Shown here: positions 1-55,280 of the stretch, piece after piece | Position numbering within the stretch: position 1 is the first letter of the stretch | How the letters are laid out: every line of letters starts with the position of its first letter | Virus record (IMG/VR): IMGVR_UViG_3300028590_000007 | DNA: 61,346 nucleotides | Reading direction: 5' to 3' (one strand) | DNA from: an uncultured virus (IMG/VR IMGVR_UViG_3300028590_000007) | Lineage: Duplodnaviria; Heunggongvirae; Uroviricota; Caudoviricetes | Translations under genes and position numbers: made by a program | Notes under the pieces: model-generated | What the model was told of the DNA's origin: nothing | Databases searched by the model: none | The model's input: only the letters and a program-made list of their open reading frames with translations

Positions 1-540
1 AGGAACAGCACTTCTGCAATATCCAGCTAGTTCGGCGGAAGCTCTCGTGAAGATAGCTTCGGCGTGTCGTAGGGCACCGGCATCGTCATCAGCGTTGAAC
101 CATACTTGTTGTTCCCTTAGGTCACAAGTCCATCGACCTCCCTTACCTGCGAAACCGGTGTCATCATGGAAGATATCCTTGGCATAGATAGTAAGCAGAT
201 CATAGCGACCCAGTCCGAACGAGTAACTTCCGAACTGAATGTGGTCCATATAAGAGGATCTCACATGAGTGCGCGTGAAACTCGCATTATTGACGGCCAT
301 CCCTCTCCATAATCTCGGGAATGGATAAGTAAGTGAGGTTGGTAGCGGATACTGCTTGTCCTCCTCACTTACGCGTAGAAAGTCCAAGATATCGAAGTTG
401 TTGGTTGTCGCTGCACCTCCGATAACGTAATTATATTTGATACTGTAATTCCCGCCGGTAGCGTACAGAAACGTAGCTCGCAGGGATATGGTGAAGCCAC
501 AAGAAGCAACAACTGTGGTGACAAAGTTTATTGGTTGCAT
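1..540 (-). CDS. hypothetical protein, partial (runs off the window's left edge); probable paralog of 540..1175
   Basis: Not in ORF track. ATG at 540 overlaps the upstream TAA (TAATG); open for 180 codons (MQPINFVTTVV...RHAEAIFTRASAELAGYCRSAVP). Confidence 0.8.
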   Translation of the reverse strand, partial: MQPINFVTTVVASCGFTISLRATFLYATGGNYSIKYNYVIGGAATTNNFDILDFLRVSEEDKQYPLPTSLTYPFPRLWRGMAVNNASFTRTHVRSSYMDHIQFGSYSFGLGRYDLLTIYAKDIFHDDTGFAGKGGRWTCDLREQQVWFNADDDAGALRHAEAIFTRASAELAGYCRSAVP

Positions 541-1175
541 TATATGAAAATGTATTCCTCGGTTACTGGTTCCATTACGGCTGCGGTATAAGGTGCGCTT
601 GCGGCGAGCACTCCATTGGCTATGTGCCCCTCGACAAGGTCATCTCCGAGAGATGACTCGAAGGTCCAGGTCGAGTCAGGAAATGCTCTTCCTAATAGAC
701 GGAACATAAGTGTGGCTGATAGAGCCAAGCGAAACGCCTGTTCAGCATGTTCGGTCGAGTACATCTCCCTTGTCGTACCGCCCCAATCACTGTCGCCGGG
801 TAGCCATATGTCTCCATAGTGCCAGCTATTGAAGTGCAGTGTGGACTGTATTCTTGCGTAGTAAGTCCGCTCCCTCGTCTGTTCGTACTTAGGAGACAGA
901 TCTTTATGCCTGAGAGCGATCATCTCTTCGCCGAACAGATTAAACTTATTCATACCCCAGCGACCGGAGTCGTCGCCGCCATCGTTTGTTATACCGTCGG
1001 GTAGACTGCAGCTCTTGATGGAGGTAAGTACCGCACGCCATGCTGCGTAACGACCTTCATTAGAGGGTGGAAGACCTTTCACCTCCAGCGAACAGCTGGG
1101 CGAATTCACTGATCCTCGGGTGTACCGTAGGATGAGTGGATGCTTGTCGGAGAATATTTCGATTTCCTGATACAT
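540..1175 (-). CDS. hypothetical protein with C-terminal EPVTEEYIFI tag
   Basis: 211 aa ORF; C-terminus matches genes at 48046-50853. Confidence 0.85.
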   Translation of the reverse strand: MYQEIEIFSDKHPLILRYTRGSVNSPSCSLEVKGLPPSNEGRYAAWRAVLTSIKSCSLPDGITNDGGDDSGRWGMNKFNLFGEEMIALRHKDLSPKYEQTRERTYYARIQSTLHFNSWHYGDIWLPGDSDWGGTTREMYSTEHAEQAFRLALSATLMFRLLGRAFPDSTWTFESSLGDDLVEGHIANGVLAASAPYTAAVMEPVTEEYIFI

Positions 1176-15341: not shown

Positions 15342-17006
15342 TCACAGGCTTTGAAGGTACTGCCCGATGGCAGCTGCATTCTTGCCCATGATCGGACTGT
15401 TCTTCGTGTCGTACATTACCGTTTGCTGGATGAAGCGGAGAGCTTCTTCAGCGCCTTTGCGGAGATGCTTGTTCTCAGAATCGGAATGCAGCGTAAGCAT
15501 GCGGTCGATCATGAGACGAGATTGATCTGAAGGCTTATTCAGCTGCGGCAGACTGTTGAGGGTCATTGCAATGTCCTTGTGGGTAGCGACACCCACTTCT
15601 GGAAGAACATTGATCATGTGCTGCAAACCAGAGATGGCTTCGTAACGCGACAGGGAAAAGCGCGACGACACTTCGAGGAAGAGGTGTGGAATCTTCCAGT
15701 CGGCGGAATTGATAGCTTCGTTGTTGTCAACGTCGGTATCAATAGTCGTCGCCGAATCTGTTCCAATAGGCTTCCCATTGCGAGTAATCATCGATTCCGA
15801 GATCCCCGTCACGATAGTCTTTGGGCGAGCGGGCACGCCACCCGCGCCTCCGGAAGGATAGGATGAACCATGACCACTGTAAGTCGTTCCTCCACTATAG
15901 CGACCACCTTGGCCTCCTCCGTAGTAGTTGCCACCACCATGATGGCTGGAATAGTTTGACTTTACTTCGGTGATACAGTCTTTCCACTCTTCGGGGAAGC
16001 CCTCGTCCTTGATGTGGGTTACCCAGTGCAACGACAGCTTCTCGCGGACTTCCGCAGGAAGGGAGGCATCCCAACCGGGAACTGCGATGATGTGACCGAA
16101 GTCCTTCACCGGTACCAGCTCGGAGTTCGCAGGCAGAACGCGGTTACCTTGGTTGTCATACTCCGCAGACATCTTCACCCGGATACGGGCATGGATGTCG
16201 ATAGGATACACAGCCATCTTGCCGACGGTGATATGGAAGCCCTGCTTGGTCGTCTCGTCGTCCTTGTCGGTCGCAGAGTCGAAAGCGCCCATATGAACGT
16301 GGTTGTGGGTTGTACCGTGCCAGTCACCGGAGTTGACGCCAAACTGCTCACGCAGCTTTGCGAACACTTCAAGGTTCTCCTCGGTCTCGTAATCCACCTT
16401 GACCGTCATTGCTCCACGTGTGATGCGCTGATGGAATGGGAAGTGGATGTATGCACCAGCCTCAGTGAGAAGGTGCGAGATGTGGGTCTCGGCGTTGTAG
16501 GTCTTGACCGACCAGATGTGGTACGCCACGATCTGTTTCCAGTCGTCGTACGTGATCTTCGGAGCGAGGATCTTCAGCTCCGGAGCTGCTGATTCCATGT
16601 TGAAACCAGCCGGTGGCGTTTCAGTCCACCCACGGAAGAACCTGTTTTCACGCGGAGCATAGAGCTTGCTGCCGCTGATCCGCAGACCACCTGCAGGCAT
16701 TGCGACCTGTACGTACCGTGGATCCTCTTCTTCTGGGGCTGGTTCGGACGTAACAGTGATTACCGGTTGCTTGGCAACTGCAGCCGTTGAGGCTCCTGCT
16801 GTCGGCGGTACCATCGGGTTGACGCGCACTGGTTCTTCCGGGTTACTGAGGTCTGCGTTGGCAATGGCTTCGTCAACAGTTCGATTGGTGTTGTTACCCT
16901 TACCTCCTCCGCGAGGACCACCTTGGTTCCGTTTGGACTTGTCGATGGTCTGGCCTTGCCCGCCCTTTCGGTTGGACCCTCCTTTGTTGTGATTGGTTTT
17001 GGCCAT
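15342..17006 (-). CDS. JAB/JAMM metallopeptidase (deubiquitinase-like) with disordered flanks
   Basis: Upstream Glu (NAETH) and GTTHNHVHMGAFDSATDKDDE...GFHITVG = E...HxH-x7-S-xx-D; start reassigned to ATG 17006. Confidence 0.88.
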   Translation of the reverse strand: MAKTNHNKGGSNRKGGQGQTIDKSKRNQGGPRGGGKGNNTNRTVDEAIANADLSNPEEPVRVNPMVPPTAGASTAAVAKQPVITVTSEPAPEEEDPRYVQVAMPAGGLRISGSKLYAPRENRFFRGWTETPPAGFNMESAAPELKILAPKITYDDWKQIVAYHIWSVKTYNAETHISHLLTEAGAYIHFPFHQRITRGAMTVKVDYETEENLEVFAKLREQFGVNSGDWHGTTHNHVHMGAFDSATDKDDETTKQGFHITVGKMAVYPIDIHARIRVKMSAEYDNQGNRVLPANSELVPVKDFGHIIAVPGWDASLPAEVREKLSLHWVTHIKDEGFPEEWKDCITEVKSNYSSHHGGGNYYGGGQGGRYSGGTTYSGHGSSYPSGGAGGVPARPKTIVTGISESMITRNGKPIGTDSATTIDTDVDNNEAINSADWKIPHLFLEVSSRFSLSRYEAISGLQHMINVLPEVGVATHKDIAMTLNSLPQLNKPSDQSRLMIDRMLTLHSDSENKHLRKGAEEALRFIQQTVMYDTKNSPIMGKNAAAIGQYLQSL

Positions 17007-17010
17007 GGTA

Positions 17011-18441
17011 TTAGATGAACTGCGGAGTAAGCTGATCGGGTTTGAAGGTATTGATTGCCAGAATTTTGCTATGAGCTTTCTCAAAGGCTACGATAGGTTG
17101 AGGATCTTTCGGATGTGCGGCAGCTGCAAATTCCGCGAAATGCTTCGCAGCAGTTGCATCACGCAGGTGTATCCCTGCATGAGAGTTGTCACCAGTAGCA
17201 CTGATGGTCGAGGTGAATGACGTGGGACTCACGTTCTTGGAAGTGTGCGTAGGGAAGTACATCACACCATAGAAGAACGGGCCGTCGATCCACTGATTGA
17301 AGAACTCCTGTGCGTAACCCCAGAGGGCTTCGGCGTTCAGGATGTCTCCGGGCATCTTGTTGATCGCAGTACTGTTTTGAGCCGTGAGGATCGAAAGCTG
17401 ATACGAACTGTCATACGGAGCACGTTGAACGCTGCGAATCCTGATGGCACCACGAGTAGTACCCTCTTGGGAGAGAGGGCCGCCCAGCATCTTCTCGATA
17501 CCGACGCGTGTGGCTTCTTGGAAAGTCGCAGCACCACCTGCAGAGGGTACAACGAGGTACGATACCGACAGCGAGACCATCTTGGGCTTGAACGCAGGTG
17601 CGTCCCAGATGGACCGCGCCATGTTCTTGTTGATAGTCATCTGTGAAACACCGCCTCCAACATCCCCAAACAGAGTGGAGAGACGCTGAGAACCAGCGAT
17701 GGAGTGAGTGATACCAGCGAGAGGTGAGTTCTCGAAGATGAAGATCGGACGCAGCAGGGCGACGATAAACTTCCGTGAATCCGCCGGACCATAGTAGACA
17801 CCGTTGGTAACAGGGATGGTTGCCTGAATGCAGTCAGCGATAGCCATCTTGGTCTCGCTGTTGCGGAGGGCCAGAATATGAGAGATATCCTGCAGAATGT
17901 GGGCTGGAGCACCCAGACGAGCGCGACCTTGGTCACCCCCACCTGTACTGGCAGAATTCTTCAGCATTCGCAGCATGTTCTTGTTAGCGTCCTCCTTTCT
18001 ACGCAAGAACGAGAATTTTGGAGATTCGTAAACTTCCATGAGATCTTTGTGGGTGATCTCATCGAACTTCGTATTCATGAATGCGGCAGCAGCTGGTTCC
18101 CAGCTTTGCTGAATCATGCGGGCGACAACCTTGGAACGGAAGTCAGCGCCGTAGGCAGTAGGCTCTGGGACAAACGCAGGGATGTCTGCAAGGGGAATAC
18201 CTTGGATGGCGTCGGTAGTCGAGGTAGTCCACGTGCCGCTGCTGAAGGTCAGGAGACGAACAGGCGACCCACTAGAACCGACGATTGTCGAGGTTACCGG
18301 GGGAGTCGGGATCGAGAACTGCCAAGCTGGAGCTGGAGTGGCTGGAGGTGGCGGAGTTTCGACTGCTGCAGCGGCTGGGGCCTTGTCCTTTTTGGCTGCA
18401 GTTTTGGTTACCCTCTTGGTGGCTTTCTTGGTAGTACTCAC
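17011..18441 (-). CDS. hypothetical protein inside the Ubl operon
   Basis: 476 aa; start overlaps the E1 stop; Lys/Pro/Ala-rich N-terminal arm. Confidence 0.85.
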   Translation of the reverse strand: MSTTKKATKRVTKTAAKKDKAPAAAAVETPPPPATPAPAWQFSIPTPPVTSTIVGSSGSPVRLLTFSSGTWTTSTTDAIQGIPLADIPAFVPEPTAYGADFRSKVVARMIQQSWEPAAAAFMNTKFDEITHKDLMEVYESPKFSFLRRKEDANKNMLRMLKNSASTGGGDQGRARLGAPAHILQDISHILALRNSETKMAIADCIQATIPVTNGVYYGPADSRKFIVALLRPIFIFENSPLAGITHSIAGSQRLSTLFGDVGGGVSQMTINKNMARSIWDAPAFKPKMVSLSVSYLVVPSAGGAATFQEATRVGIEKMLGGPLSQEGTTRGAIRIRSVQRAPYDSSYQLSILTAQNSTAINKMPGDILNAEALWGYAQEFFNQWIDGPFFYGVMYFPTHTSKNVSPTSFTSTISATGDNSHAGIHLRDATAAKHFAEFAAAAHPKDPQPIVAFEKAHSKILAINTFKPDQLTPQFI

Positions 18442-19157
18442 GTCAGTTTCACTTCAGTTGCTTCTTCATGCACTTCCGCTTTCGGGGCTTCCATTGGAAT
18501 ATCCTTGAAGCGGACACTGGTGACACCGTTGCGGGTGCCCTTGATTTCTGCTGGCACATTCTCCAGACTTGCGCAACGCTGCAGAGCATTGAACAGCCAG
18601 AGCATGAAGCTACCAGCGTTGTGGTTGGCAATCGGCAGTTGAGGTGCTGACTCGATTGCTTCGACGGTATTGCAGCTTTCGCCGGGGCCACGACCATCAG
18701 GGACGATGTTGTGGCGCACGTATGGGTCGCGATAGGTATCACCCCATTCCGGTATGAATAGGTATGCCTCGGGGTCTTCTTCTTCATTGGCACCCCAGAT
18801 GATCGGGATGTCCATGCGTTCCGCGATCTTTTTCGCGTAGCAGCGTGCGTCGTGGTTGTCGACAGCCACGAACAGAATCTTGACATCGTCAGGAAGCTCG
18901 GTCATGTCGGAGATATAGGTCTCCATGCATGTGATCTTCTTGTCGGTGAACTTATCGTACATCGAGGCGTAGACTTTCGCCTTGTTTTCCGAGTCACCAA
19001 AGTGTGCGCCGATTTGACGAAGAGTATTCTTCTTCTCAAACTTGTCGCCATCGATGAGGAGCAGGTTGTGCGTCATCATGAGGGCGGGCAGGATGTGGGA
19101 GGTGACTCCTCCACAACCGATAATGGCGATTGTATCAAAGGATCGTTCGATCTTCAT
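18438..19157 (-). CDS. E1/ThiF-family adenylyltransferase (Ubl-activating enzyme)
   Basis: IIGCGGVTS, IDGDKFEKKNTLRQ, NKA, AVDNHDAR; candidate catalytic Cys in GESC followed by PQLPIAN; no CxxC Zn sites. Confidence 0.93.
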   Translation of the reverse strand: MKIERSFDTIAIIGCGGVTSHILPALMMTHNLLLIDGDKFEKKNTLRQIGAHFGDSENKAKVYASMYDKFTDKKITCMETYISDMTELPDDVKILFVAVDNHDARCYAKKIAERMDIPIIWGANEEEDPEAYLFIPEWGDTYRDPYVRHNIVPDGRGPGESCNTVEAIESAPQLPIANHNAGSFMLWLFNALQRCASLENVPAEIKGTRNGVTSVRFKDIPMEAPKAEVHEEATEVKLT

Positions 19158-19166
19158 GAGTGGGTG

Positions 19167-19382
19167 TTACAGAGACTTGGACTGGTAGGTGGGGTTGTGT
19201 TTAGCAAAGATATCCCCGAGGATGCGGAGAGTTTTGCTAGGGATTTTGGGTGCTGGTTTCGGAGTCGTGAACTCCGTGATTCCTGCGGACAGGATATCAG
19301 CTGCGGCTTTGTCAGTGGGGGCTGCGCGGGCTTTAGCTGCTAGTGCGAGGAAGAAATCCCCGTCTTTTTTCTTAGCTGCCAT
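19167..19382 (-). CDS. small hypothetical protein inside the Ubl operon
   Basis: 71 aa ORF filling the E2-E1 gap. Confidence 0.7.
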   Translation of the reverse strand: MAAKKKDGDFFLALAAKARAAPTDKAAADILSAGITEFTTPKPAPKIPSKTLRILGDIFAKHNPTYQSKSL

Positions 19383-19385
19383 TTA

Positions 19386-20336
19386 TCAATCCCAGATAGG
19401 AGGGAGGGTTGCGGTGACCGTGCGAGCAATGGTTTTGGGGAACACAATGTGTAGATAGGGAGCAAGATCCCCTTCGTCAGCAATGCGTACTTCAGCGGTC
19501 ATACCTGTCATCGTCTTGGAGACATCGAGGTTACCGGGAGATTCTTCGAGGTCGATGAAGACGTCGTTGAGACCGCGTGGTCCGAAAGCACCACGGGAAA
19601 CCTGCGGGGACATACAGATGCGCCCGTCGTCGAAGATGTTATAAAGCGGAGGCTGATACAGGCGCTTGGTGGACTGCTCGACCATGTAGATGTACTGGGA
19701 GACATATCCCGGTTCACTGCGAGAACCAGCCTGCTCGGGATGGCTCTGACGTTGAACGAACATCACTTTGTCAAAGCCACACTCCTTGGCATTGATCGCG
19801 CACTTCCAGTTCATGGAGTTCTGGTTGAGATAGTGTCTGGAGTACTCCAGACCACCGCGATCCATATTGCTGGTGTATGGCTTGAACTTGATGGTTTTCG
19901 AAGCACCATCCCAGTAAGGAACAAATGCACCGTTCCAAGTGCAGTAGTCCATGATCCAGATCTGCCAGATTTCACCGGCACGTTTCCACATCGACCATTT
20001 GATGTCTTGTGCGACACCATCCACCTGAACCATCCGTTCAGTGGCCCTCATGATAGGTTCGAATGTGTCGCCACCAGTGATGTGCGAAGCGGCGATCTGT
20101 TCCACTTCCTCAATGGTGATTTTGGCAAGGGTGAACTCACCGGGTTTGACCGATGGCATGAAGGCCATCATTGACGTTGCTGGTTTGTCCACTCCGATCA
20201 CGAAACTACTCGCAGCAGGACGCTGGATAGCTTCATAAACGATTGCATCGCCAGCAGGCGGTGCAGGTGGCGGACCTCCAGCGATATCAGCTGCGACTGC
20301 GGCAGCTTCTTCTTGTGGGGCAGCGGTTGCGCTCAT
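19386..20336 (-). CDS. prokaryotic E2-like (UBC fold) protein
   Basis: LYQPPLYNIFDDGRICMS...SPGNLDV resembles the P-x-x-N-[IV]-x-x-DG-x-IC catalytic signature of prokaryotic E2 family D (PRTRC protein B type). Confidence 0.8.
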   Translation of the reverse strand: MSATAAPQEEAAAVAADIAGGPPPAPPAGDAIVYEAIQRPAASSFVIGVDKPATSMMAFMPSVKPGEFTLAKITIEEVEQIAASHITGGDTFEPIMRATERMVQVDGVAQDIKWSMWKRAGEIWQIWIMDYCTWNGAFVPYWDGASKTIKFKPYTSNMDRGGLEYSRHYLNQNSMNWKCAINAKECGFDKVMFVQRQSHPEQAGSRSEPGYVSQYIYMVEQSTKRLYQPPLYNIFDDGRICMSPQVSRGAFGPRGLNDVFIDLEESPGNLDVSKTMTGMTAEVRIADEGDLAPYLHIVFPKTIARTVTATLPPIWD

Positions 20337-20351
20337 TTAGGGTGTTGTAGA

Positions 20352-20398
20352 TAAAAACAAAGAAAGAGGGGTGACACACGTTTCCGCATGTCACCCCC
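20352..20398 (-). terminator. Rho-independent terminator between Ubl and E2 genes
   Basis: GGGGTGACATGCG-GAAA-CGTGTGTCACCCC followed by TCTTTCTTTGTTTTT. Confidence 0.85.
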
Positions 20399-20481
20399 GC
20401 AGTTTGTTGCCACCTCCGATATGGACTATCAAAGGTAGCCCGTGAGTGAGGTTCAGTCTTCCCGAACCTCACTCTGGATAA

Positions 20482-20931
20482 TTATGCCAATGCCTTGGAC
20501 GAGGCGACGGTTTGGACAGTGATGACATCACCGGCCGAAAGCGTCACGTTGGATTCAGAGCCGTTGACGAACACGCGGATGTTCGAAGGAAGAGCGAAGT
20601 CCTCCTTGAACTGACGGTCGTTTTGAAGCGTAGAGGTGGTGGTGCCGTACGGGACGTAGAAGTCGCTGCGGTTGCCATTGACATGGACAATCACTTTGAC
20701 ACGTGCAGCTGCCTTGGACGAGGCAACGGTTTGCACTTCGACGATGTCCGAAGCGGCGAGTCGCTTGTCCGCAGTAGAACCGTTAACGATAATACGGATG
20801 TTCGAAGGAAGAGCGAAGTCCTCCTTGAACTGCCGATCACTGGCGAGAGCCGAGGCGTAGGTACCGGTTGGAACCCACCAGGTGTTGGTATTGCCGTTGA
20901 TTTTGACTGCGATTTTGATGCGAGCTGCCAT
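20482..20931 (-). CDS. tandem di-ubiquitin-like (beta-grasp) precursor protein
   Basis: 149 aa = Met + 2 x 73 aa gapless units + LA; beta-grasp pattern; each unit ends VQTVASSKA; first gene of the E2/E1/JAB cluster; start reassigned to ATG 20931. Confidence 0.85.
   Translation of the reverse strand: MAARIKIAVKINGNTNTWWVPTGTYASALASDRQFKEDFALPSNIRIIVNGSTADKRLAASDIVEVQTVASSKAAARVKVIVHVNGNRSDFYVPYGTTTSTLQNDRQFKEDFALPSNIRVFVNGSESNVTLSAGDVITVQTVASSKALA
20491..20928 (-). repeat. 219-bp tandem coding repeat (2 units)
   Basis: Identical block cggatgttcgaaggaagagcgaagtcctccttgaactg recurs about 219 nt apart (near 20577 and 20796). Confidence 0.95.
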
Positions 20932-21080
20932 ATAGGTGGTTGTGTCTGTGTAGTGTGGTGTGCTCCTTGGAGCGGTATATATACAGACGCTCTCCCCTAC
21001 AGGAGATGTTTTTAAAATGCCAACCACATGATGCCGAAAGTAATCCTAGAGGATTAAGTGCTTACGCACTCTATAGCAGC

Positions 21081-41943: not shown

Positions 41944-42246
41944 TTAATCAACAACCGTGTAGCCAAATTGAAGCTGTAACCACGAGGACAACACATGCAT
42001 GCAGCGTGGGTTGTGCGGGCTATCCTCGAAATAATGGACGAGTTTGAACTCACTCTGCTCAGGGTAGAACTGAACATACCACACGTCAGATATTTTGTAC
42101 AAACCCTTACCCCTGTAACCAGCCTTCACGTAGTGACGTCCCATAAGGACATACGCTATGTTGGCTACGATAGCTTCCTTGTCCTTCTTAAGGGTGGCTT
42201 TCAGGCTAGAAGGTATGGCGAAGCGTGCGTCTTCTAGTCGTGTCAC
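41944..42246 (-). CDS. hypothetical protein
   Basis: GTG 42246 overlaps the NADAR TGA. Confidence 0.6.
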   Translation of the reverse strand: MTRLEDARFAIPSSLKATLKKDKEAIVANIAYVLMGRHYVKAGYRGKGLYKISDVWYVQFYPEQSEFKLVHYFEDSPHNPRCMHVLSSWLQLQFGYTVVD

Positions 42247-42791
42247 AAAGGGACAGCACCTTCTACCAGTTTCAGCTGGAGTTCGGTTCGCACCTCCATC
42301 CAGAGATTGCCAAGGACATTTTTGCCATCCTTCTTTATACCCCATCCCCAGAAAGGATCACGCCATGAGTTTTCGATAAGAGGTCGGTCTTCCGTTTGCA
42401 TCAGCTTCCGGTAGACGTATTCGTGTTGCTCCACCTTGGCTTGCAAGATGCGCTTCATGATGTGGACTCTTACCTCATACCAATCCTCACGCTGAAGATG
42501 CTTATGATTTTGTGCGATCTGATATGCCTCGTGGGCTGAACGGGACCGTTTGATCAGATCTCGAACATGGAACTCACCCGGGAATTTCTCCCAGTGATAC
42601 GCATGCTCTGAAGTGTCGAAGTCCCAGTCTTCCCATATAAGACGGAAGGATGAGAAGTTTGATAGTGGATAGAACTCGCGTTCATAGAAGAACACAGGGT
42701 CCTTGTTAGTGGGGGAATGGTCCTCCACTTCTCCTGCTTTCTTGAACATCTCGTTCTCCGCAGCCTGAAAAAGCGAATCGAACTTATCCAT
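42243..42791 (-). CDS. NADAR (YbiA-like) family protein
   Basis: LSNFS, TSEHAYHWEKF, REDW, MKRILQAK, LIENSWRDPFWG, GKNVLGNLWMEVR. Confidence 0.93.
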   Translation of the reverse strand: MDKFDSLFQAAENEMFKKAGEVEDHSPTNKDPVFFYEREFYPLSNFSSFRLIWEDWDFDTSEHAYHWEKFPGEFHVRDLIKRSRSAHEAYQIAQNHKHLQREDWYEVRVHIMKRILQAKVEQHEYVYRKLMQTEDRPLIENSWRDPFWGWGIKKDGKNVLGNLWMEVRTELQLKLVEGAVPL

Positions 42792-45979: not shown

Positions 45980-46341
45980 TCCAGTGATAGAACGTACTTA
46001 CCGGATAAACGCCGCTTGCTGTAGTAAACAGACAAGGTGTTCTGTAACTGAATACGATTCCAGCTTTCCAGAGTTACGTTGAAGTAATCCTTGTATCCCT
46101 CAGGGGTGGACACCCATAAGTGATACGAAGGCGGGACATAATCCGTAGTAGGGATGTAGGTGTTGTTTCCTGCGTAGATAAGGTTGGTCGTGTAGTAACC
46201 GTCCGACCATGTCTTTTCGTAAACAGTACCTACCGTAGCCGTCTTAGGTAACGCCGCGTGTTCGTAGATCAACCCTCCAACCAGCAGTACGCCAGCAAAT
46301 ATCAGCGTTGGCCATAGGGGGCTTGTTTTGTAGTTCATCAT
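45976..46341 (-). CDS. membrane-anchored hypothetical protein
   Basis: N-terminal hydrophobic helix. Confidence 0.75.
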   Translation of the reverse strand: MMNYKTSPLWPTLIFAGVLLVGGLIYEHAALPKTATVGTVYEKTWSDGYYTTNLIYAGNNTYIPTTDYVPPSYHLWVSTPEGYKDYFNVTLESWNRIQLQNTLSVYYSKRRLSGKYVLSLE

Positions 46342-48029
46342 TTGCTCTCGCCGTTGTGTAGTTTGAAGATATGCTCCACGTAAGCATGCTTCTCCTTATC
46401 GGGAACCTCGAAGTAGTATTTCACTTCCTCCAGCTTCCGATACGAGTCGTCCCGCTTTTTCTTGAGCCTAGCAAAGTCGATCCTATCCAGTCCTCCCATA
46501 ATCTCCAAAGGAGCACGAGGAGGCGGTGGAACGAATGTAATCATACCGTCTTGAGTCCATTGCTTCAGCCACTTCTTTACCGAGGCTTGCGAAGTATACC
46601 CAAGCTTGTTTGACAGCCAGTCCAAGTCGATTTCAACTGCATTGTCGGAAGTGGCAACACCTCCTTCAGTAATTGCATCGAACCATTGAACCATCCTCTT
46701 GTCCGCTTTGTCTATCTTGTGGAACTTGATGAATGCGGTGGTGCTCTTTTCCTTGGAGCGTCTGATCACATTATCTGAGATCAGTGCTTGGGTAACGGAG
46801 TCGATCATAAAACCGGACACTCCTGAGTTCTTACCAATCGTCTTCCAGTCTGCGTCCACAAAGCCAGATCCGTCTGCCAACTCATCCAGAGCGTTGTACA
46901 TGGCAGTAATGTCTTCCATGGTGGGGTGAGCCATCCTCAAGAAGAAGTCCTGCGTACGTATTGAATCCGGGGACAGGAAGGAATGACACCAAGAGTCATT
47001 CCCATCACGTCCTGCACGTCCCAGTTGCTGCATACAGGCTTCGACTGAACCGGTGATGTCGCGCTCGAAAACGTGACGAACATTCGGTTTGTCGATACCC
47101 ATACCGAATGCGGATGTAGCGAAGATAATACGTGCCTTATCTTCCATCCACATATCTTGGTTGCTCCTCTTGAGAGCAGGGTCCATCTCCCCGTAGTAAT
47201 AGGTGATGGGTTCTTTGATGAAATTCTGTGCAGCGTAAAGAGTTTCCTCAAGTCGGGTGATCGTAGAGAAGTAGACGATACTCGAACCTTGGATTCTCTT
47301 CAGCTTCGAGAACAGTCTAAGGTTTGTCTCACCCTCGTCACATGTCTCACTGGACAGGTGTAGGTTGGTACGCCGAGGGTAATGTAGGACCTTTTCCGCT
47401 TTCCCCAATCCAAGGACCCAGCGGATGTCTTTTTCTACTTCCGGTGGCGCTGTAGCTGTGAAGGCTCCTACCACACGTGGATTGAGACGTTGAATAACAT
47501 CCCCCATAACCTTGTATGAAGGACGGAAGTTATCACACCATGAGCTAAGGCAGTGAGCCTCGTCTAGGAATATCGCGTCGGGCTTTCGTGAGTTGATGGC
47601 AGCCATGAAGATCTCATTTTCGAAGCGTTCCGGTGCTACGAAAAGGATACTGGTCTTACCATCCACCCACCGTTTCATTGCTTCCAGATTCTCACCCTCG
47701 GTTTGGGTGCTGGAGATCTGATCCGATGAGATACCTTTGTTCCAACATGATTTCACTTGATCACGCATAAGAGCCGTCAGAGGTGAAACCACAATACTGT
47801 GCCAACCGTGACACAGTGTGGGCGTAATGTAGCAGGCTGACTTACCCAGCGAAGTAGGCAAGATACAGACCGTGTCCATACACGCCAGCAAGTTCATAAC
47901 CACGCGGTCCTGACCCGCACGCAGTTTTTCAAAGCCAAGGATGGAAAGTACTTCAGGCAGCTTGTTAAGGCCATCTTGATACATCTCCAGATCAGGGATG
48001 CTTTTTCTTTCAGAGAATCTTTCTGCCAT
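46338..48029 (-). CDS. recQ: RecQ-family DNA helicase
   Basis: LPTSLGKS, VSPLTALMRDQV, FVAPER, DEAHCLSSW..FRPSY, TATA, ATSAFGMGIDKPNVR, QQLGRAGRDG. Confidence 0.95.
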   Translation of the reverse strand: MAERFSERKSIPDLEMYQDGLNKLPEVLSILGFEKLRAGQDRVVMNLLACMDTVCILPTSLGKSACYITPTLCHGWHSIVVSPLTALMRDQVKSCWNKGISSDQISSTQTEGENLEAMKRWVDGKTSILFVAPERFENEIFMAAINSRKPDAIFLDEAHCLSSWCDNFRPSYKVMGDVIQRLNPRVVGAFTATAPPEVEKDIRWVLGLGKAEKVLHYPRRTNLHLSSETCDEGETNLRLFSKLKRIQGSSIVYFSTITRLEETLYAAQNFIKEPITYYYGEMDPALKRSNQDMWMEDKARIIFATSAFGMGIDKPNVRHVFERDITGSVEACMQQLGRAGRDGNDSWCHSFLSPDSIRTQDFFLRMAHPTMEDITAMYNALDELADGSGFVDADWKTIGKNSGVSGFMIDSVTQALISDNVIRRSKEKSTTAFIKFHKIDKADKRMVQWFDAITEGGVATSDNAVEIDLDWLSNKLGYTSQASVKKWLKQWTQDGMITFVPPPPRAPLEIMGGLDRIDFARLKKKRDDSYRKLEEVKYYFEVPDKEKHAYVEHIFKLHNGESK

Positions 48030-48045: not shown

Positions 48046-48468
48046 TTAGACGAAGACCCAGTCCTCGTCAATCACACTGGTGGTATACGATGGTTTTGGA
48101 TCAATGTAGTTACCCAAGAAATGTTTCCTAAATATAAGCATGTATACAGTGGACGTCGGCATGTGACTGGAGTTACTGGGACCGAGGAATCGCGCCCTGC
48201 CAGTAGCTTCGTCTAGCACAGTACACGCTCTGGAAATGTCTGCGTGGGGCATTACCCTGTTGAGGATTTTATCCGCCTCCGTCAGATTCCATTTAGGCAT
48301 ATTGTCCGGTGGAGGGTTTTTGGAGCTTGGTGCGAGTTTGTAAATCTCTTCCAAGGTTTCACATGCGTCCTCAGGTTCGAATTTATAGGTCCTTGAACCT
48401 GAAAGACTGTAGAGAGTTCCGATGCCTGCGTGATACAAAACTGGAATTAAAAGTGCTGACATACTCAT
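48046..48468 (-). CDS. hypothetical protein with divergent C-terminal tag (SVIDEDWVFV)
   Basis: ATG 48468 is ATGA-coupled to the upstream gene. Confidence 0.75.
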   Translation of the reverse strand: MSMSALLIPVLYHAGIGTLYSLSGSRTYKFEPEDACETLEEIYKLAPSSKNPPPDNMPKWNLTEADKILNRVMPHADISRACTVLDEATGRARFLGPSNSSHMPTSTVYMLIFRKHFLGNYIDPKPSYTTSVIDEDWVFV

Positions 48469-48884
48469 ACGAAAATATATTCTTCGGTTATTGGTTCGGT
48501 TGTTGGTTCTATTGTGGTGAAGTCGTTGCAGTGTCCTACGTCTTTCATCATAATGGCGAAAGCAAGGGCACCCCATGTAATACTCTGCGATCCTGCGGAA
48601 TTGAGATACATCTTCTTCATGGAAGCAGGCATATGGTCCTCTTCGAACTCCTTTGCAACCGCCAGTATATTTCCGGCATGCCCCCAAATATCGTAAGACA
48701 GATCCAGAATTTTATTCACGCACGCATTAATGTTCATGAGGACATCCTCTAGTGGAACAGTGTGCTTGTCAGGTTGAATGACTACTCCGTCTGGTTCTCT
48801 GGCTATGTGCGCAAATCCGGGGATGTACACATCAGTCCAGTGCCTCTTGGGTCTACCTTCTTTGGGCTTATGGTACGGTATCAT
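48465..48884 (-). CDS. MIPYH-family protein with C-terminal EPITEEYIFV tag
   Basis: 139 aa; paralog of 48881..49288. Confidence 0.85.
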   Translation of the reverse strand: MIPYHKPKEGRPKRHWTDVYIPGFAHIAREPDGVVIQPDKHTVPLEDVLMNINACVNKILDLSYDIWGHAGNILAVAKEFEEDHMPASMKKMYLNSAGSQSITWGALAFAIMMKDVGHCNDFTTIEPTTEPITEEYIFV

Positions 48885-49288
48885 ACGAATACGTATTCCT
48901 CGGTTACTGGTTCCAGAACAGAGGCAGTTATCACTGAATCACCTAAGTAACCATTATAATGCCCCGTAGCTTTTTCCATTATTTCCAAGGGTAAGATTGA
49001 CCAAATGGAACCTCTACTTGCCTCTATGTACTCAGGTGTAAGTACGCCTGAAGAATTAAAAGCACTGGAGGCATCTACGATTTGGCCTACAGTACCGTAG
49101 ACTGCGTAGAACAGGTCATGCATCTGCCCTGACTGGTGGCCGAGCGCCTCTACCACCTGTTTGATGGTTCCCGGTTCGGCTGGCTCTATCCTAATACCTT
49201 CCTTTTCGTAAATTACCTTACCGTAGTAAGGAATAGAGAAAGATGGGTAAGTGCGGTAGCTAGCAGATCTGCTGTGGTACGGTATCAT
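48881..49288 (-). CDS. MIPYH-family protein with C-terminal EPVTEEYVFV tag
   Basis: 135 aa; paralog of 48465..48884. Confidence 0.85.
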   Translation of the reverse strand: MIPYHSRSASYRTYPSFSIPYYGKVIYEKEGIRIEPAEPGTIKQVVEALGHQSGQMHDLFYAVYGTVGQIVDASSAFNSSGVLTPEYIEASRGSIWSILPLEIMEKATGHYNGYLGDSVITASVLEPVTEEYVFV

Positions 49289-49851
49289 ACGAATACATAT
49301 TCCTCGGTTATGGGTTCGGTGGGCGCGTCAAAGAATTCATCCGCAAAGAAAACACCGCAGATGCGCTTGCGAGTGTAAGCCACCATAGAGCTATCGAAGT
49401 GAGTAAATGTTCCCGCCTTTCTACGTAGATTAATCTCAACCTGATAAGCATGATAGTATGCGGTCATGATGTTGTCATGATGCACACTGGCGGTATCAAA
49501 TACCTTCCTGAACATCTTCTCCATAGCCCTTGTTTTCTTGGACATAGCGGAGATGCTGAGTGTAGACATTTCCTCTAACTTCAGGAACTCCGCCAGATAG
49601 GCTCTGTCTGGGTTCTTGGGAAGGGCCAGAAGTTCTGGAGGTGTGTAGACAGAGTCGTATTCCTCTTCCTCTTCATCCTCATCATACACGTCAAGCTCGT
49701 CATCATAATCGTCGTCTTCGTATTCCTCGGTATTGTCTTCGTCCATTGGTTCTTGGGTTGCTATTGTTGTGGTTGTCTCGCGATATGCCCAAGTGCCTTC
49801 CAACATTATCGTATCTTCTCTTCTGGTTAGGATTTCTAGCTCCATGGGCAT
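49285..49851 (-). CDS. acidic protein with C-terminal EPITEEYVFV tag
   Basis: 188 aa ORF. Confidence 0.85.
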   Translation of the reverse strand: MPMELEILTRREDTIMLEGTWAYRETTTTIATQEPMDEDNTEEYEDDDYDDELDVYDEDEEEEEYDSVYTPPELLALPKNPDRAYLAEFLKLEEMSTLSISAMSKKTRAMEKMFRKVFDTASVHHDNIMTAYYHAYQVEINLRRKAGTFTHFDSSMVAYTRKRICGVFFADEFFDAPTEPITEEYVFV

Positions 49852-49866
49852 ATTTGTTGTGGTTGT

Positions 49867-50853
49867 TTAGATGAAGGTCATTTCCTCATCGATAGGTTCG
49901 AGACACTTCGGATCTACCGAGGTGTCTACTGCTGCCTTTGCCTTTTTACCGAATACTTGGCCGTACAGATTCCTGTTACCTTCGCCGATGAGTGCGTCTC
50001 GTAGCACTGAATTCATCATCTCGTCTAAATTTCGCATGTAAGCCTCGCGGTCGCGATTGGCTTGTGCGAGTTCTTCATCGGTTGGTGCACGAACTTCACG
50101 AACCTGCACTCCAACCGGTCTACCGAAGCGATCCAGTTGGTACGTAGGAGCATAAGTGTGGTCGGTAGGTAATACTGTGTTAGCATTAACCGTAGCGCCC
50201 TCATTGTTCAAAGCTTCCGCAGCAGCTACGCCCGCATCGTACGCTTCTCGTGCTATACGATCTGCAGGAACAGCTACGAACGTAGGGGGTTCTGCAAACG
50301 TTGCTGGAGGGTAAGCATAGTGGTTAGTAGGTCGAATCCAGCCTCGTCCTTGCGTGGGAGGTGCAGGGACTGCAGGGGCACCCTCAGGTTCGTCCATAGC
50401 GCGTGCTGTCTGCTCTAATAACTCCTGCACCTCGTTCGTAACCCGCATAGCTTCCACATGTTGTCGCGCAATGCCTGCCCAGTTGACCGTTGTATGTCCC
50501 ACGGTTTCCGTCGTGACGGTTCCTCCGTTATTCACCGATACATTGTTACCATGGGCATCGTTGATATGGACGGCACCGCCCGCTGGGTATGTTACCCGCA
50601 GTGTATCGGTGTTACTCATCCACTCGACGGGCATCTGTGTTGTTGTCATGTAACGCTGATACAAGGCATCGTCCGTAGGGCTTGCATATACTTGGTACCC
50701 GGTTGCTGTGTTGTAATCAGCTGCAGTATGGGTATGGGCACGGAGTGCGCGACCTACCATTTGAATATCTTCATTCATATAACGTGTATACGTATTTTCT
50801 AAGTGCTTCCTGCGTATCAGTTTCTCCAGTGATGTCTTGCAGGAATTTGACAT
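49867..50853 (-). CDS. low-complexity protein with C-terminal EPIDEEMTFI tag (start uncertain)
   Basis: Up to 328 aa. Confidence 0.8.
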   Translation of the reverse strand: MSNSCKTSLEKLIRRKHLENTYTRYMNEDIQMVGRALRAHTHTAADYNTATGYQVYASPTDDALYQRYMTTTQMPVEWMSNTDTLRVTYPAGGAVHINDAHGNNVSVNNGGTVTTETVGHTTVNWAGIARQHVEAMRVTNEVQELLEQTARAMDEPEGAPAVPAPPTQGRGWIRPTNHYAYPPATFAEPPTFVAVPADRIAREAYDAGVAAAEALNNEGATVNANTVLPTDHTYAPTYQLDRFGRPVGVQVREVRAPTDEELAQANRDREAYMRNLDEMMNSVLRDALIGEGNRNLYGQVFGKKAKAAVDTSVDPKCLEPIDEEMTFI

Positions 50854-53981: not shown

Positions 53982-55280
53982 TTATTCAACCGCTGCTTCT
54001 TTCTTCTTTTTGGCAAGGGTGAAGTACTGGACCATGGCTTGTGCGCCGAGATCACTGATTCGCCCATTGTCAAAAGCGTCCTGAAGTTCGGCAAAGGTTG
54101 CCTCTTCTTCATCCGTAAGTCCGGAGATAGTGGCTGCAACTTTGGTTGCCGTTTCCTTGGGTCCCTTGTCCGTTGCGTGGGACATAGGGATGTCGTCATC
54201 ATCATCCACAGGGGCGGAACTCTTGAATTGCGTTGGGGGTCTACGCGCCTCAGAGGCTTCCTGTACCGGTGGTTGTCGCTTGGTGGTGTCTTTGTATTGT
54301 GCCGTACGCTCTGGTACCTGCACATAGTCACCGCAAGCTTCTTTAATCAGTTCCACAGGTAGATCGGTTTCCTCAATGAGGTAAGTGACGATCTCATGTG
54401 CGGAAGGAATATACATGGTGTTCTCGAAGTCGAGGAACCGAGTACGGTTTACAAGTGCTTCAGGGGGAACCGCGATAGCTTCATGACCTTTGAGGAAGTC
54501 CTCTTGGGTACTGAAGATCATGGTGTTGGCTGGCTTGCCTGCGCCTTTGGCCGCGCCTACTGCTTTCTGCGTGGACCAAGCATTGAGACCAGTCTTTGGA
54601 TCAGTAACATCACCAAGGAGATAGTCAGGCCAGTTCGCGTCGTGGTATGCTGGGTTACCGCGAGGCCCTTTGTTAAGAGCATCTTGGATCAGCGAGAATC
54701 CACCTTGCGACAAACCAAGCAGGAAGTTCTGCGCGACTTGTTCTTCATCATCTTTCACCGTGTAGGTACCGAAGAAGTTACACAGACCGATCTTCTGAGG
54801 CATCGTCAGCAGACGTTTCTCACTTGAGTTGAAGACGGTGTGATAAGAGAGGTGTTTCCACTTCTCATCATTTCGGACCATATAGTTCATTCTATCCAGA
54901 GGATCGAAAGAGTCTGCTCGGGTTTCCGCGATACCAAGTGCTCGCTTGGTACGCGGCGAGAAGAAGCTCCGGTTCTCTGGACCCCAGAATCGATAAACTT
55001 CGAATTCTGCATAGTACCACCAGTTGAAATGCGGATGTCCCGAAGAGGAAATCGCTTCTGCATCTCGATACGGGAGGTACGAGGTTTGGAACGCTTCATC
55101 AGTAAGTGGTAGAGTGTGATCAAAGGCAGGAAGAATCCGACCTTCGACTTTGTTTTTCTCTGACGGGAAAACGATCTTCACATTCTCTTTCTTCGAGAAG
55201 ATTACTCTTCCTCCGAAAGTGGGATCGTTTTTGTTCACTTGCTTTTCAGGTTCTTCGCCGGGACGTGTACGAGGAGTCAT
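53982..55280 (-). CDS. putative single-stranded DNA-binding protein
   Basis: Between polymerase and recombinase; N-terminal GRILP and late DDDDDIPM acidic motif, as in gp32-like SSBs. Confidence 0.5.
   Translation of the reverse strand: MTPRTRPGEEPEKQVNKNDPTFGGRVIFSKKENVKIVFPSEKNKVEGRILPAFDHTLPLTDEAFQTSYLPYRDAEAISSSGHPHFNWWYYAEFEVYRFWGPENRSFFSPRTKRALGIAETRADSFDPLDRMNYMVRNDEKWKHLSYHTVFNSSEKRLLTMPQKIGLCNFFGTYTVKDDEEQVAQNFLLGLSQGGFSLIQDALNKGPRGNPAYHDANWPDYLLGDVTDPKTGLNAWSTQKAVGAAKGAGKPANTMIFSTQEDFLKGHEAIAVPPEALVNRTRFLDFENTMYIPSAHEIVTYLIEETDLPVELIKEACGDYVQVPERTAQYKDTTKRQPPVQEASEARRPPTQFKSSAPVDDDDDIPMSHATDKGPKETATKVAATISGLTDEEEATFAELQDAFDNGRISDLGAQAMVQYFTLAKKKKEAAVE

Follow-up and report, generated by a model that had tools for sequence, protein, structure and literature searches.

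Introduction

Terminal address peptides of phages are known mainly from bacteriophage T4, whose capsid-targeting sequence (CTS) is N-terminal. As set out in PMC7411985, the CTS on IPI-III and Alt is a portable terminal peptide that docks unrelated proteins to the prohead core. Here we describe a shared C-terminal tail in an uncultured virus of the Caudoviricetes (IMG/VR record IMGVR_UViG_3300028590_000007; hereafter G000). The stretch that we analyzed (hereafter the window) is 61,346 nt long and corresponds to bases 75,681-137,026 of the 212,352 bp record. Six genes end in the tail within the window, and the twelve tagged proteins of the whole genome are named T00-T11. Like the CTS, the tail is a portable terminal peptide that one phage places on several proteins of unrelated sequence. 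It differs in that all twelve tails are C-terminal and their genes lie outside the head module; the N-terminal CTS, moreover, is cleaved off by the prohead protease.

C-terminal address signals are described in two further settings that touch on phage heads. The HK97 protease reportedly carries a C-terminal prohead-targeting signal. In SPN3US, the C-terminal segment of the prohead protease gp245 is needed for prohead incorporation, according to the section of PMC7411985 that treats this protein. These signals share their C-terminal position with the tail, but they occur on one protein per phage, compared with a dozen unrelated proteins here; none of the candidate protease or scaffold proteins of G000 ends in the tail. 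In encapsulins, a short C-terminal cargo-loading peptide suffices to address diverse cargo to a shell of the HK97 fold (PMC7925596 and PMC8346489). The position of the peptide and the diversity of its carriers resemble our case. The encapsulin consensus is different, however, the genes of the cargo stand beside that of the shell, and encapsulins belong to cells and not to viruses.

Other C-terminal peptides are read by cellular or replication proteins. The C-terminal peptide of single-stranded DNA-binding protein (SSB-Ct), that of T7 gp2.5 and the clamp-binding tails of T4 consist of an acidic run followed by hydrophobic or aromatic C-terminal residues, which are read by a pocket of the partner protein. 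The G000 tail likewise has an acidic run and then hydrophobic and aromatic residues at the very C-terminus. Those tails are found on a hub protein or on DNA enzymes, however, whereas ours are on orphans. SSB-Ct (of the type ..D-D-D-I-P-F) ends in an aromatic residue, while in G000 the last residue is I or V, the aromatic is penultimate, and the tail of a sister phage is basic. Unlike the proteins that bind a T4 gp45-type clamp, the family-A polymerase, ligase, helicases and primase of G000 lack the tail, and no clamp family was recognized with Pfam or PHROGs. Class II PDZ ligands, HbYX motifs and ssrA all depend on a free C-terminus and have hydrophobic-x-hydrophobic or hydrophobic-aromatic-x ends. 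Ten of the 12 tails end hydrophobic-x-hydrophobic-COOH, as class II PDZ ligands do (position -2 is T in T06 and E in T00), but the ten conserved positions exceed what any of these motifs has. A Pfam scan of 200 non-tagged G000 proteins detected no PDZ, proteasome-like, Clp or Lon domain. The tail behaves like a terminal targeting or docking peptide and could be assigned to none of the known families that we tested.

Occurrence of the tail

Six open reading frames (ORFs) of the window end in [ES][PV][IV][TD]E[ED][YWM]xF[IV]. All are on the minus strand, and their stop codons begin at 540, 48046, 48465, 48881, 49285 and 49867. The motif was found nowhere else in the window among six-frame ORFs of at least 40 aa. 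The tagged genes, and the untagged helicase gene directly downstream of the tag cluster of the window, are listed below (window coordinates unless marked as genome).

Genome 75450-76220, minus strand: T00, 256 aa; window 1..540 holds its N-terminal 180 aa
540..1175, minus strand: T01, 211 aa, C-terminus E-P-V-T-E-E-Y-I-F-I
48046..48468, minus strand: T02, ~140 aa, C-terminus S-V-I-D-E-D-W-V-F-V
48465..48884, minus strand: T03, 139 aa, MIPYH N-terminus, C-terminus E-P-I-T-E-E-Y-I-F-V, paralogue of T04
48881..49288, minus strand: T04, 135 aa, MIPYH N-terminus, C-terminus E-P-V-T-E-E-Y-V-F-V
49285..49851, minus strand: T05, 188 aa, C-terminus E-P-I-T-E-E-Y-V-F-V
49867..50778, minus strand: T06, 303 aa (328 aa from 50853), C-terminus E-P-I-D-E-E-M-T-F-I
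Genome 141541-143472: T07, 643-aa form
Genome 153498-156621: T08-T11, flanked by an AAA ATPase gene and by the convergently oriented TerL gene
46341..48029, minus strand: RecQ-like DEAD/Helicase_C helicase, untagged

The gene of the RecQ-like helicase starts 18 nt downstream of T02, and T07 lies directly upstream of a DEAD helicase gene. For T02 the most likely start is 48468, where the start codon overlaps the preceding stop as ATGA and the protein has 140 aa; T06 most likely begins at 50778 (303 aa), the form present in the protein collection. T00 and T01 lie side by side (genome 75450-76855, window 1-1175), the TAA stop of T01 overlapping the start of T00 (TAATG). The tail of T00 is degenerate (..E-E-D-V-T-D-W-E-F-V), and its C-terminus lies 230 nt beyond the window edge. 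The middle of T05 is very acidic, with a long poly-acidic stretch (net charge -27, pI 4.3). Both TAA and TGA stops occur on the tagged genes of the window; all four TGA codons overlap the start of the following gene (ATGA).

Across the genome, 11 ORFs end in [DE][DE][YWMF]x[FW][IV] and a 12th, T00, ends in ..D-W-E-F-V, so that all 12 tails (12 of ~299 genes) fit [DE]x0-1[YWFM]x[FW][IV]-stop. When a looser pattern was run against 3,845 six-frame stop-to-stop ORFs of at least 30 aa, it returned exactly these 12, all in the coding frame; no internal or off-frame occurrence was found in G000. For a comparison with chance we used the 298 genes called by a simple gene caller (greedy longest ORFs of at least 45 aa). 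This set showed 10 tail C-termini against 0.0034 expected (Poisson P(>=10) = 6e-32), the count being 10 because the greedy caller discarded T03 (48465-48884) over its overlap. Composition alone predicts 0.78 occurrences anywhere in the called proteome, and all observed ones were terminal. An acidic run comes first in the tail; four mostly hydrophobic residues follow it, ending aromatic-x-[F/W]-[I/V] with a free carboxylate. The final residue is I or V in 12/12 tails, the penultimate one is aromatic, and a hydrophobic-x-acidic triplet stands three residues before the aromatic in all 12 (acidic residue E in 11, D in T00). An earlier note, made from the letters of the window, had named six gene ends, both kinds of stop codon among them, and had proposed a pattern search of the full genome; the six ends are real, the two stops are as it described, and the search returned the 11 ORFs and the degenerate 12th, every one terminal.

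Selection on the tail peptide

Over the last six codons of the 12 tails, the pairwise difference was 0.235/0.242/0.624 at codon positions 1/2/3, compared with 0.705/0.685/0.712 for control codons -20 to -11. Third codon positions are thus nearly as free as unconstrained sequence, indicating that the constraint is on the peptide and not on the nucleotides. For identical tail residues, the codon differed in 47% of pairs, where the codon usage of the genome predicts 56%. The next gene starts 0-18 nt past the stop in 10 of the 11 tags examined (T01-T11), often with an ATGA or TAATG overlap. The distance from the tag stop to the following start codon is not constant, no gene lies downstream of T08, and the phage makes no use of Shine-Dalgarno (SD) sequences: its upstream leaders are G-poor and lack SD motifs, with an SD-like 4-mer in 32/223 genes. 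These three features also place the constraint on the peptide and its terminal position. No conservation was seen 3' of the tag stops, except at the start of the MIPYH paralogues. We concluded, in line with the earlier note, that both the peptide and its place at the chain end are under selection.

Relatedness of the carriers

We compared the carriers after removing the last 12 residues of each. BLASTP of the trimmed proteins linked T03 with T04 (E 6e-10) and, weakly, T08-T11 with each other (E 0.003-0.5). The view that only the two MIPYH proteins are homologous held for the window, where the other carriers stayed unlinked. With hhalign, the eight groups of carriers gave probabilities of at most 1.8% in 28/28 pairs, and carrier lengths span 135-643 aa, arguing against full-length paralogues of a single fold. 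As far as sequence comparison reaches, the twelve carriers form eight groups without detectable homology beyond the tail. No N-terminal peptide is shared among them besides MIPYH in T03 and T04.

Above the cut-off, none of the 12 carriers matched a family of PHROGs or of Pfam (including OB folds); T08 had one sub-threshold match to MinC_C. T06, the T08-T11 profile and T07 returned only self-matches in collections of 5.8e9 and 1.84e9 proteins, where the T06 and T08-T11 profile searches depend on shared 5-residue words. T07 was absent from five relatives, and the ESM Atlas offered no model or usable match for it. The alignment of T08-T11 showed common glycine-rich turn motifs. In the ESM Atlas, the T09 model (pTM 0.80) is similar to bactofilin and further beta-helix proteins (TM 0.62); an AF2 model of T09, made with 4 paralogues, had a mean pLDDT of 46.6, too low for a fold search. 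The carriers are fast-evolving accessory orphans.

A different tail in the closest relative

Homologues of the large terminase TerL numbered 74, were at best 64% identical and lay mostly on large uncultured contigs. A search with the TerL alignment gave 40 related viral loci, all at most 50% identical, and the G000 tail was absent from all 40. Scans of viral contigs with TerL and RecQ as single proteins found no tag-bearing close relative, and the DNA pattern for P-[IV]-T-E-E-Y-[IV]-F-[IV]-stop had no match in viral contigs. In metagenome contigs, a shorter DNA pattern hit eight loci, namely the record itself (L058, L060) and six chance matches in stop-to-stop ORFs of 13-27 aa. Genome contigs held only distant relatives, 30-39% identical. 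Soil metagenome runs contain pieces of G000; in a further soil run the contigs were identical cluster pieces that added zero tag variants.

We read seven genomes in full: G000 and its relatives G001, G002, G003, G006, G007 and G008. The closest relative available is G001 (150 kb, 77% complete, GC 0.39), which is strongly syntenic with G000 and has a TerL 50% identical to that of G000. The G000 tail is absent from G001, which instead marks 34 of 242 called genes with a basic, aliphatic tail of its own, ..N-[HL]-x-K-[VIT]-x-[IL]-T-[LI]. Its pattern was found at 30 C-termini against 0.045 expected, and at 5 internal sites against 8.8 expected. Codon positions of this tail differed by 0.35/0.27/0.62 against 0.70/0.68/0.66 (11 representatives of the 34), a signature like that of the G000 tail. 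The carriers fell into 9 BLAST clusters (for the 32 carriers that a stricter pattern catches) and into 9-10 groups by hhalign, where the probability reached at least 50% in 1/55 pairs; none of the 24/34 G001 carriers scanned had a Pfam family above the cut-off. Some G001 arrays share genomic islands with the G000 tags; T07 and a four-gene G001 array, for instance, each stand directly upstream of the orthologous DEAD helicase. Other tagged arrays of G001 adjoin UvsX, primase and SbcD. The RecQ-like helicase is conserved in the relatives (48% identity in G001).

Among the G001 proteins (L069:6303-7827, L071:2667-3905 and others) are thirteen of 71-116 aa built of 2-4 short aromatic and glycine-rich tandem repeats. 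By eye they are MORN/YwqK-like, without Pfam support. All start M-T-L-A-Q-Q-N and end in the G001 tail, and the repeat copy number differs between neighbours.

A multi-family tail was therefore present in 2/7 fully read genomes, G000 and G001, and the two tails are unlike each other. G002, G003, G006, G007 and G008, with TerL 33-39% identical, had no such tail, only single tandem paralogue families with well-kept C-termini. The search of relatives proposed in the earlier note thus recovered its tail in none of them, and uncovered a different multi-family tail on the 34 G001 genes.

In G008 (L119:2628-4471, L119:12661-13971), thirteen tandem genes encoding 60-80 aa end in ..L-I-K-[SA]-[YH]-D-T, and a 261-aa protein elsewhere in that genome clusters with them by its tail. 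In G006, a ~160-aa family ending ..Y-T-W-E-[EGA] is present in seven copies. In both genomes the conserved C-termini belong to single paralogue families and are near-invariant.

Candidate readers

G000 encodes two classic-clade AAA ATPases (PF00004), to which VAT, Cdc48 and Bcs1 are closest among solved structures. The gene of AAA#2 (genome 156818-158203) is directly upstream of the T11-T08 cluster. For jumbo phages, Iyer et al. 2021 (PMC7824862) proposed that Bcs1-like ATPases move proteins in the folded state into the head. The G000 AAA ATPases showed no BCS1_N domain. We rejected AAA#2 as the reader: BLASTP gave no G001 orthologue at the syntenic place or elsewhere in the 77% complete contig, and no match in 4/5 further relatives. 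AAA#1 likewise had no G001 match by BLASTP.

A conserved 432-aa protein (window 53985-55280) is encoded between the genes of the UvsX-like recombinase and the DNA polymerase. By eye, its consensus is conserved over an N-terminal part of ~310 aa and again in a C-terminal segment, which a Pro/Ala-rich stretch precedes. As a hidden clamp it was rejected, having no PDB relative; it may be the single-strand-binding protein of the phage. A phyletic-pattern comparison gave 19 genes found in G000 and G001 only, none of them compelling as a reader. The major capsid protein was not identified in G000. A head-module candidate of 483 aa (A7) is protease/scaffold-like, and its AF2 model (pLDDT 41.9) was too poor for a fold search.

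The window also holds a ubiquitin-like conjugation set (15345-21027, minus strand), with these members:

Within 15345-21027, minus strand: JAMM protein, 554 aa, exact H-x-H-x7-S-x2-D by eye, no Pfam match
18441-19157, minus strand: ThiF/E1-like protein (PF00899, E 3.6e-14)
19389-20336, minus strand: E2-like protein, 316 aa, sub-threshold Prok-E2_D match
20485-21027, minus strand: tandem ThiS/MoaD-like ORF, 181 aa, two ~72-aa repeats, without a GG end

ThiF had a match in 1/10 relatives (G006); it was absent from the 77% of G001 that is available and from 8/9 further relatives. A predicted complex of the ThiF-like E1 dimer, ATP and Mg with the last 45 residues of T04 scored 0.00 (mark 0.32), which gives no answer either way.

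Genome context

G000 has a CheckV completeness estimate of 100% and a GC of 0.50. The 298 called genes cover 95% of the genome, with 247/298 on the minus strand. Matches to PHROGs and Pfam include a multisubunit RNA polymerase split into pieces, of which one has an intein, a sigma-like factor, a family-A DNA polymerase, a primase, a DnaB-like helicase, RecQ-like and DEAD helicases, a UvsX-like recombinase, SbcCD, a ligase and TerL. They further include a thymidylate synthase (PHROG phrog_85; Pfam family Thy1/ThyX), NAD-salvage enzymes, three NADAR proteins, an Apyc1-like hydrolase and the two classic AAA ATPases. Most structural genes had no Pfam or PHROGs match, and neither chimallin nor tubulin was seen in G000. 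The nearest GenBank phages are at most 26% identical in the polymerase and 21% in TerL. A search for intergenic 8-mer promoters in G000 gave no usable motif, and none of the sequencing runs listed for G000 is an RNA run.

Several further genes are worth recording. Likely counter-defence genes encode the three NADAR-domain proteins, a nicotinamide phosphoribosyltransferase with a ribose-phosphate pyrophosphokinase (NAD salvage) and an Apyc1-like protein of the metallo-beta-lactamase fold. Their positions are:

Window 42246-42791; genome 67664-68233, 73009-73494, 32431-37075 and 158200-159108: likely counter-defence loci

The RNA polymerase beta-prime-like piece (genome 4721-8137; L006:4724-8137) contains an intein with Hint and LAGLIDADG homing endonuclease domains, and several TerL homologues of the relatives have LAGLIDADG or intein domains too. 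Outside the window, at genome 23508-27465 (L007:6511-10465), three paralogues of ~210 aa share the N-terminus M-K-R-R-x-F-(x)-x-G, a start resembling twin-arginine (Tat) export signals; they had no Pfam or PHROGs match.

Discussion

We propose that the accessory proteins carry the tail as a short, linear and genome-specific motif for docking by the C-terminus, a general reading to which we give a probability of roughly 75%. A peptide that is terminal only, sits on unrelated orphans, is selected at the amino-acid level and is replaced wholesale in a sister phage resembles a docking motif with a co-evolving reader. We infer a single common reader, which all tagged proteins would bind through the tail; the hydrophobic tip and the chain end would fit a pocket or add a strand to a sheet. 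The earlier note had described a portable address label that docks diverse cargo on one receptor. Its label stands as portable, terminal and selected, whereas no receptor was found among the candidates.

As for what the docking might serve, the use that we prefer is head loading, in which the cargo would be incorporated into the prohead and delivered along with the DNA. Head loading on its own is possible but somewhat doubtful, and the explanation taken whole, a docking motif with head loading as its preferred use, is tentative. The T4 prohead-protease site has the form hydrophobic-x-E, and we favored head loading partly because every G000 tail has hydrophobic-x-acidic before the aromatic, which is that form; the SPN3US motif is AXE. 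We also favored it because phages address unrelated proteins to the head by short terminal peptides (the T4 CTS and the SPN3US protease, and in like manner the encapsulin peptides), and because the heads of giant phages contain dozens of ejection proteins, as stated in PMC7411985 and PMC10052503.

Several observations weigh against the docking reading or against its use in the head. No reader emerged from the candidates examined (the AAA ATPases, the polymerase neighbour, the ubiquitin-like set and the phyletic pattern). The tagged genes have replication and recombination genes or TerL as neighbours and lie outside the structural module, none of whose proteins has the tail. The 34 tagged small proteins of G001 would be a large head cargo, and the G001 tail lacks the hydrophobic-x-E site. 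Just before the tail, P+T+S+A+G make up 0.39 of residues compared with 0.33 in the proteome, only a mild enrichment of P, T and A, and at a pLDDT of 46.6 the AF2 model of T09 does not allow the freedom of the tail to be read from structure. Finally, in the distant relatives conserved tails are found only within single paralogue families, so that tail conservation among diverging paralogues is common in the clade.

This last point leads to the alternative that the carriers descend from one ancestral gene in which the tail has evolved most slowly and may be the final strand of a shared fold. T03/T04 and T08-T11 are indeed paralogues, and tandem families of the relatives keep near-invariant C-termini while the remainder falls to 22-40% identity. 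The hhalign ceiling of 1.8% over all 28 group pairs and the spread of lengths speak against a common origin, however, as do the beta-helix-like model for the T08-T11 group set beside the long very acidic segment of T05, and the presence of the G001 tail on a short-tandem-repeat-like family among 9-10 unrelated groups. Even if such descent were true, the conservation of the tail would still need a reason, and we regard it as very unlikely. The conserved 30 nt could instead be a DNA or RNA signal (a ribosome site, a recombination site or a terminator) with the peptide as its by-product. The close spacing of the next gene in 10/11 tags and the use of GAGGAA for E-E in 6 tags would fit such an element. 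This explanation is close to refuted by the difference of 0.62 at third positions against 0.24 at first and second ones, together with the variable next-start spacing, the lack of a gene downstream of T08, the phage's disuse of SD sequences and post-stop conservation limited to the two MIPYH paralogues. The earlier note had named full-length paralogy within one fold and purely nucleotide-level conservation (here third positions at 0.62 compared with 0.71 in the control) as findings that would speak against it, and our data point away from both.

The remaining alternatives accept a terminal peptide and give it another use. Non-polar C-termini destabilize proteins in E. coli and ClpX reads C-terminal signals, and a hydrophobic tail might mark accessory proteins for a host protease or a phage AAA ATPase and so limit them to brief action; one of the two classic-clade AAA ATPases is directly upstream of T11-T08. 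We consider a degron of this kind unlikely: ten conserved positions exceed the needs of a generic hydrophobic degron, AAA#1 and AAA#2 are both unmatched in the 77% complete G001, which yet has 34 tagged genes, and the 200 non-tagged proteins scanned with Pfam have no protease domain. Improbable, too, is a tether that holds accessory factors to a phage or host protein of DNA metabolism. The tags immediately upstream of the RecQ-like and DEAD helicases, the G001 arrays beside UvsX, primase and SbcD, and the acidic run with an aromatic near the chain end, which recalls SSB-Ct, are all consistent with replisome or recombination docking, but the polymerase, ligase, helicases and recombinase are themselves untagged, neither Pfam nor PHROGs gave a clamp, the 432-aa neighbour of the polymerase has no PDB relative, the last residue is I/V instead of aromatic, and the G001 tail is basic. 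The tails might also plug into sockets on a polymer or lattice of the bactofilin-like T08-T11, gathering the other carriers in one body. This would suit the Atlas model of T09, the glycine-rich turn motifs common to T08-T11 and the strand-like four-residue hydrophobic tips. Polymerization of T08-T11 is conjectural, however, the AF2 model of T09 is poor, and no beta-helix family was recognized among the 24/34 G001 carriers scanned, so that co-assembly appears decidedly improbable. Lastly, E1-like enzymes act on free C-termini, and strict terminal position is the main feature of the tag, making the ubiquitin-like set a mechanistically attractive though unlikely reader. The ThiF-like E1 (with its E2-like, JAMM and ThiS/MoaD-like neighbours in the window) would adenylate the tail carboxylate and the E2-like protein would conjugate the carrier to targets, much as bacterial cGAS is conjugated by Cap2. 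The tail would then be a private, rapidly re-coded address by which a dozen carriers are covalently attached to phage or host targets, with sister phages swapping the code wholesale. We see only a slim chance of this, since the conjugation set has its own ubiquitin-like candidate, the tail ends in I/V whereas E1 sites usually accept a small last residue, and ThiF is missing from the available 77% of G001 and from 8/9 further relatives.

Our search of the literature on shared tags in phage proteins found no description of such tails; a further search returned work on encapsulin and P22 cargo. Returning to the docking motif, two sister jumbo phages each use a C-terminal peptide of their own to mark many orphan accessory proteins that are otherwise unrelated. 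If each tail has one reader, the tag would define a functional class for proteins that lie beyond homology annotation, and the two tails with their readers would be a natural pair of orthogonal tags for loading or co-localizing foreign proteins. The two phages would then also provide a clean case in which a tag and its reader have changed together.

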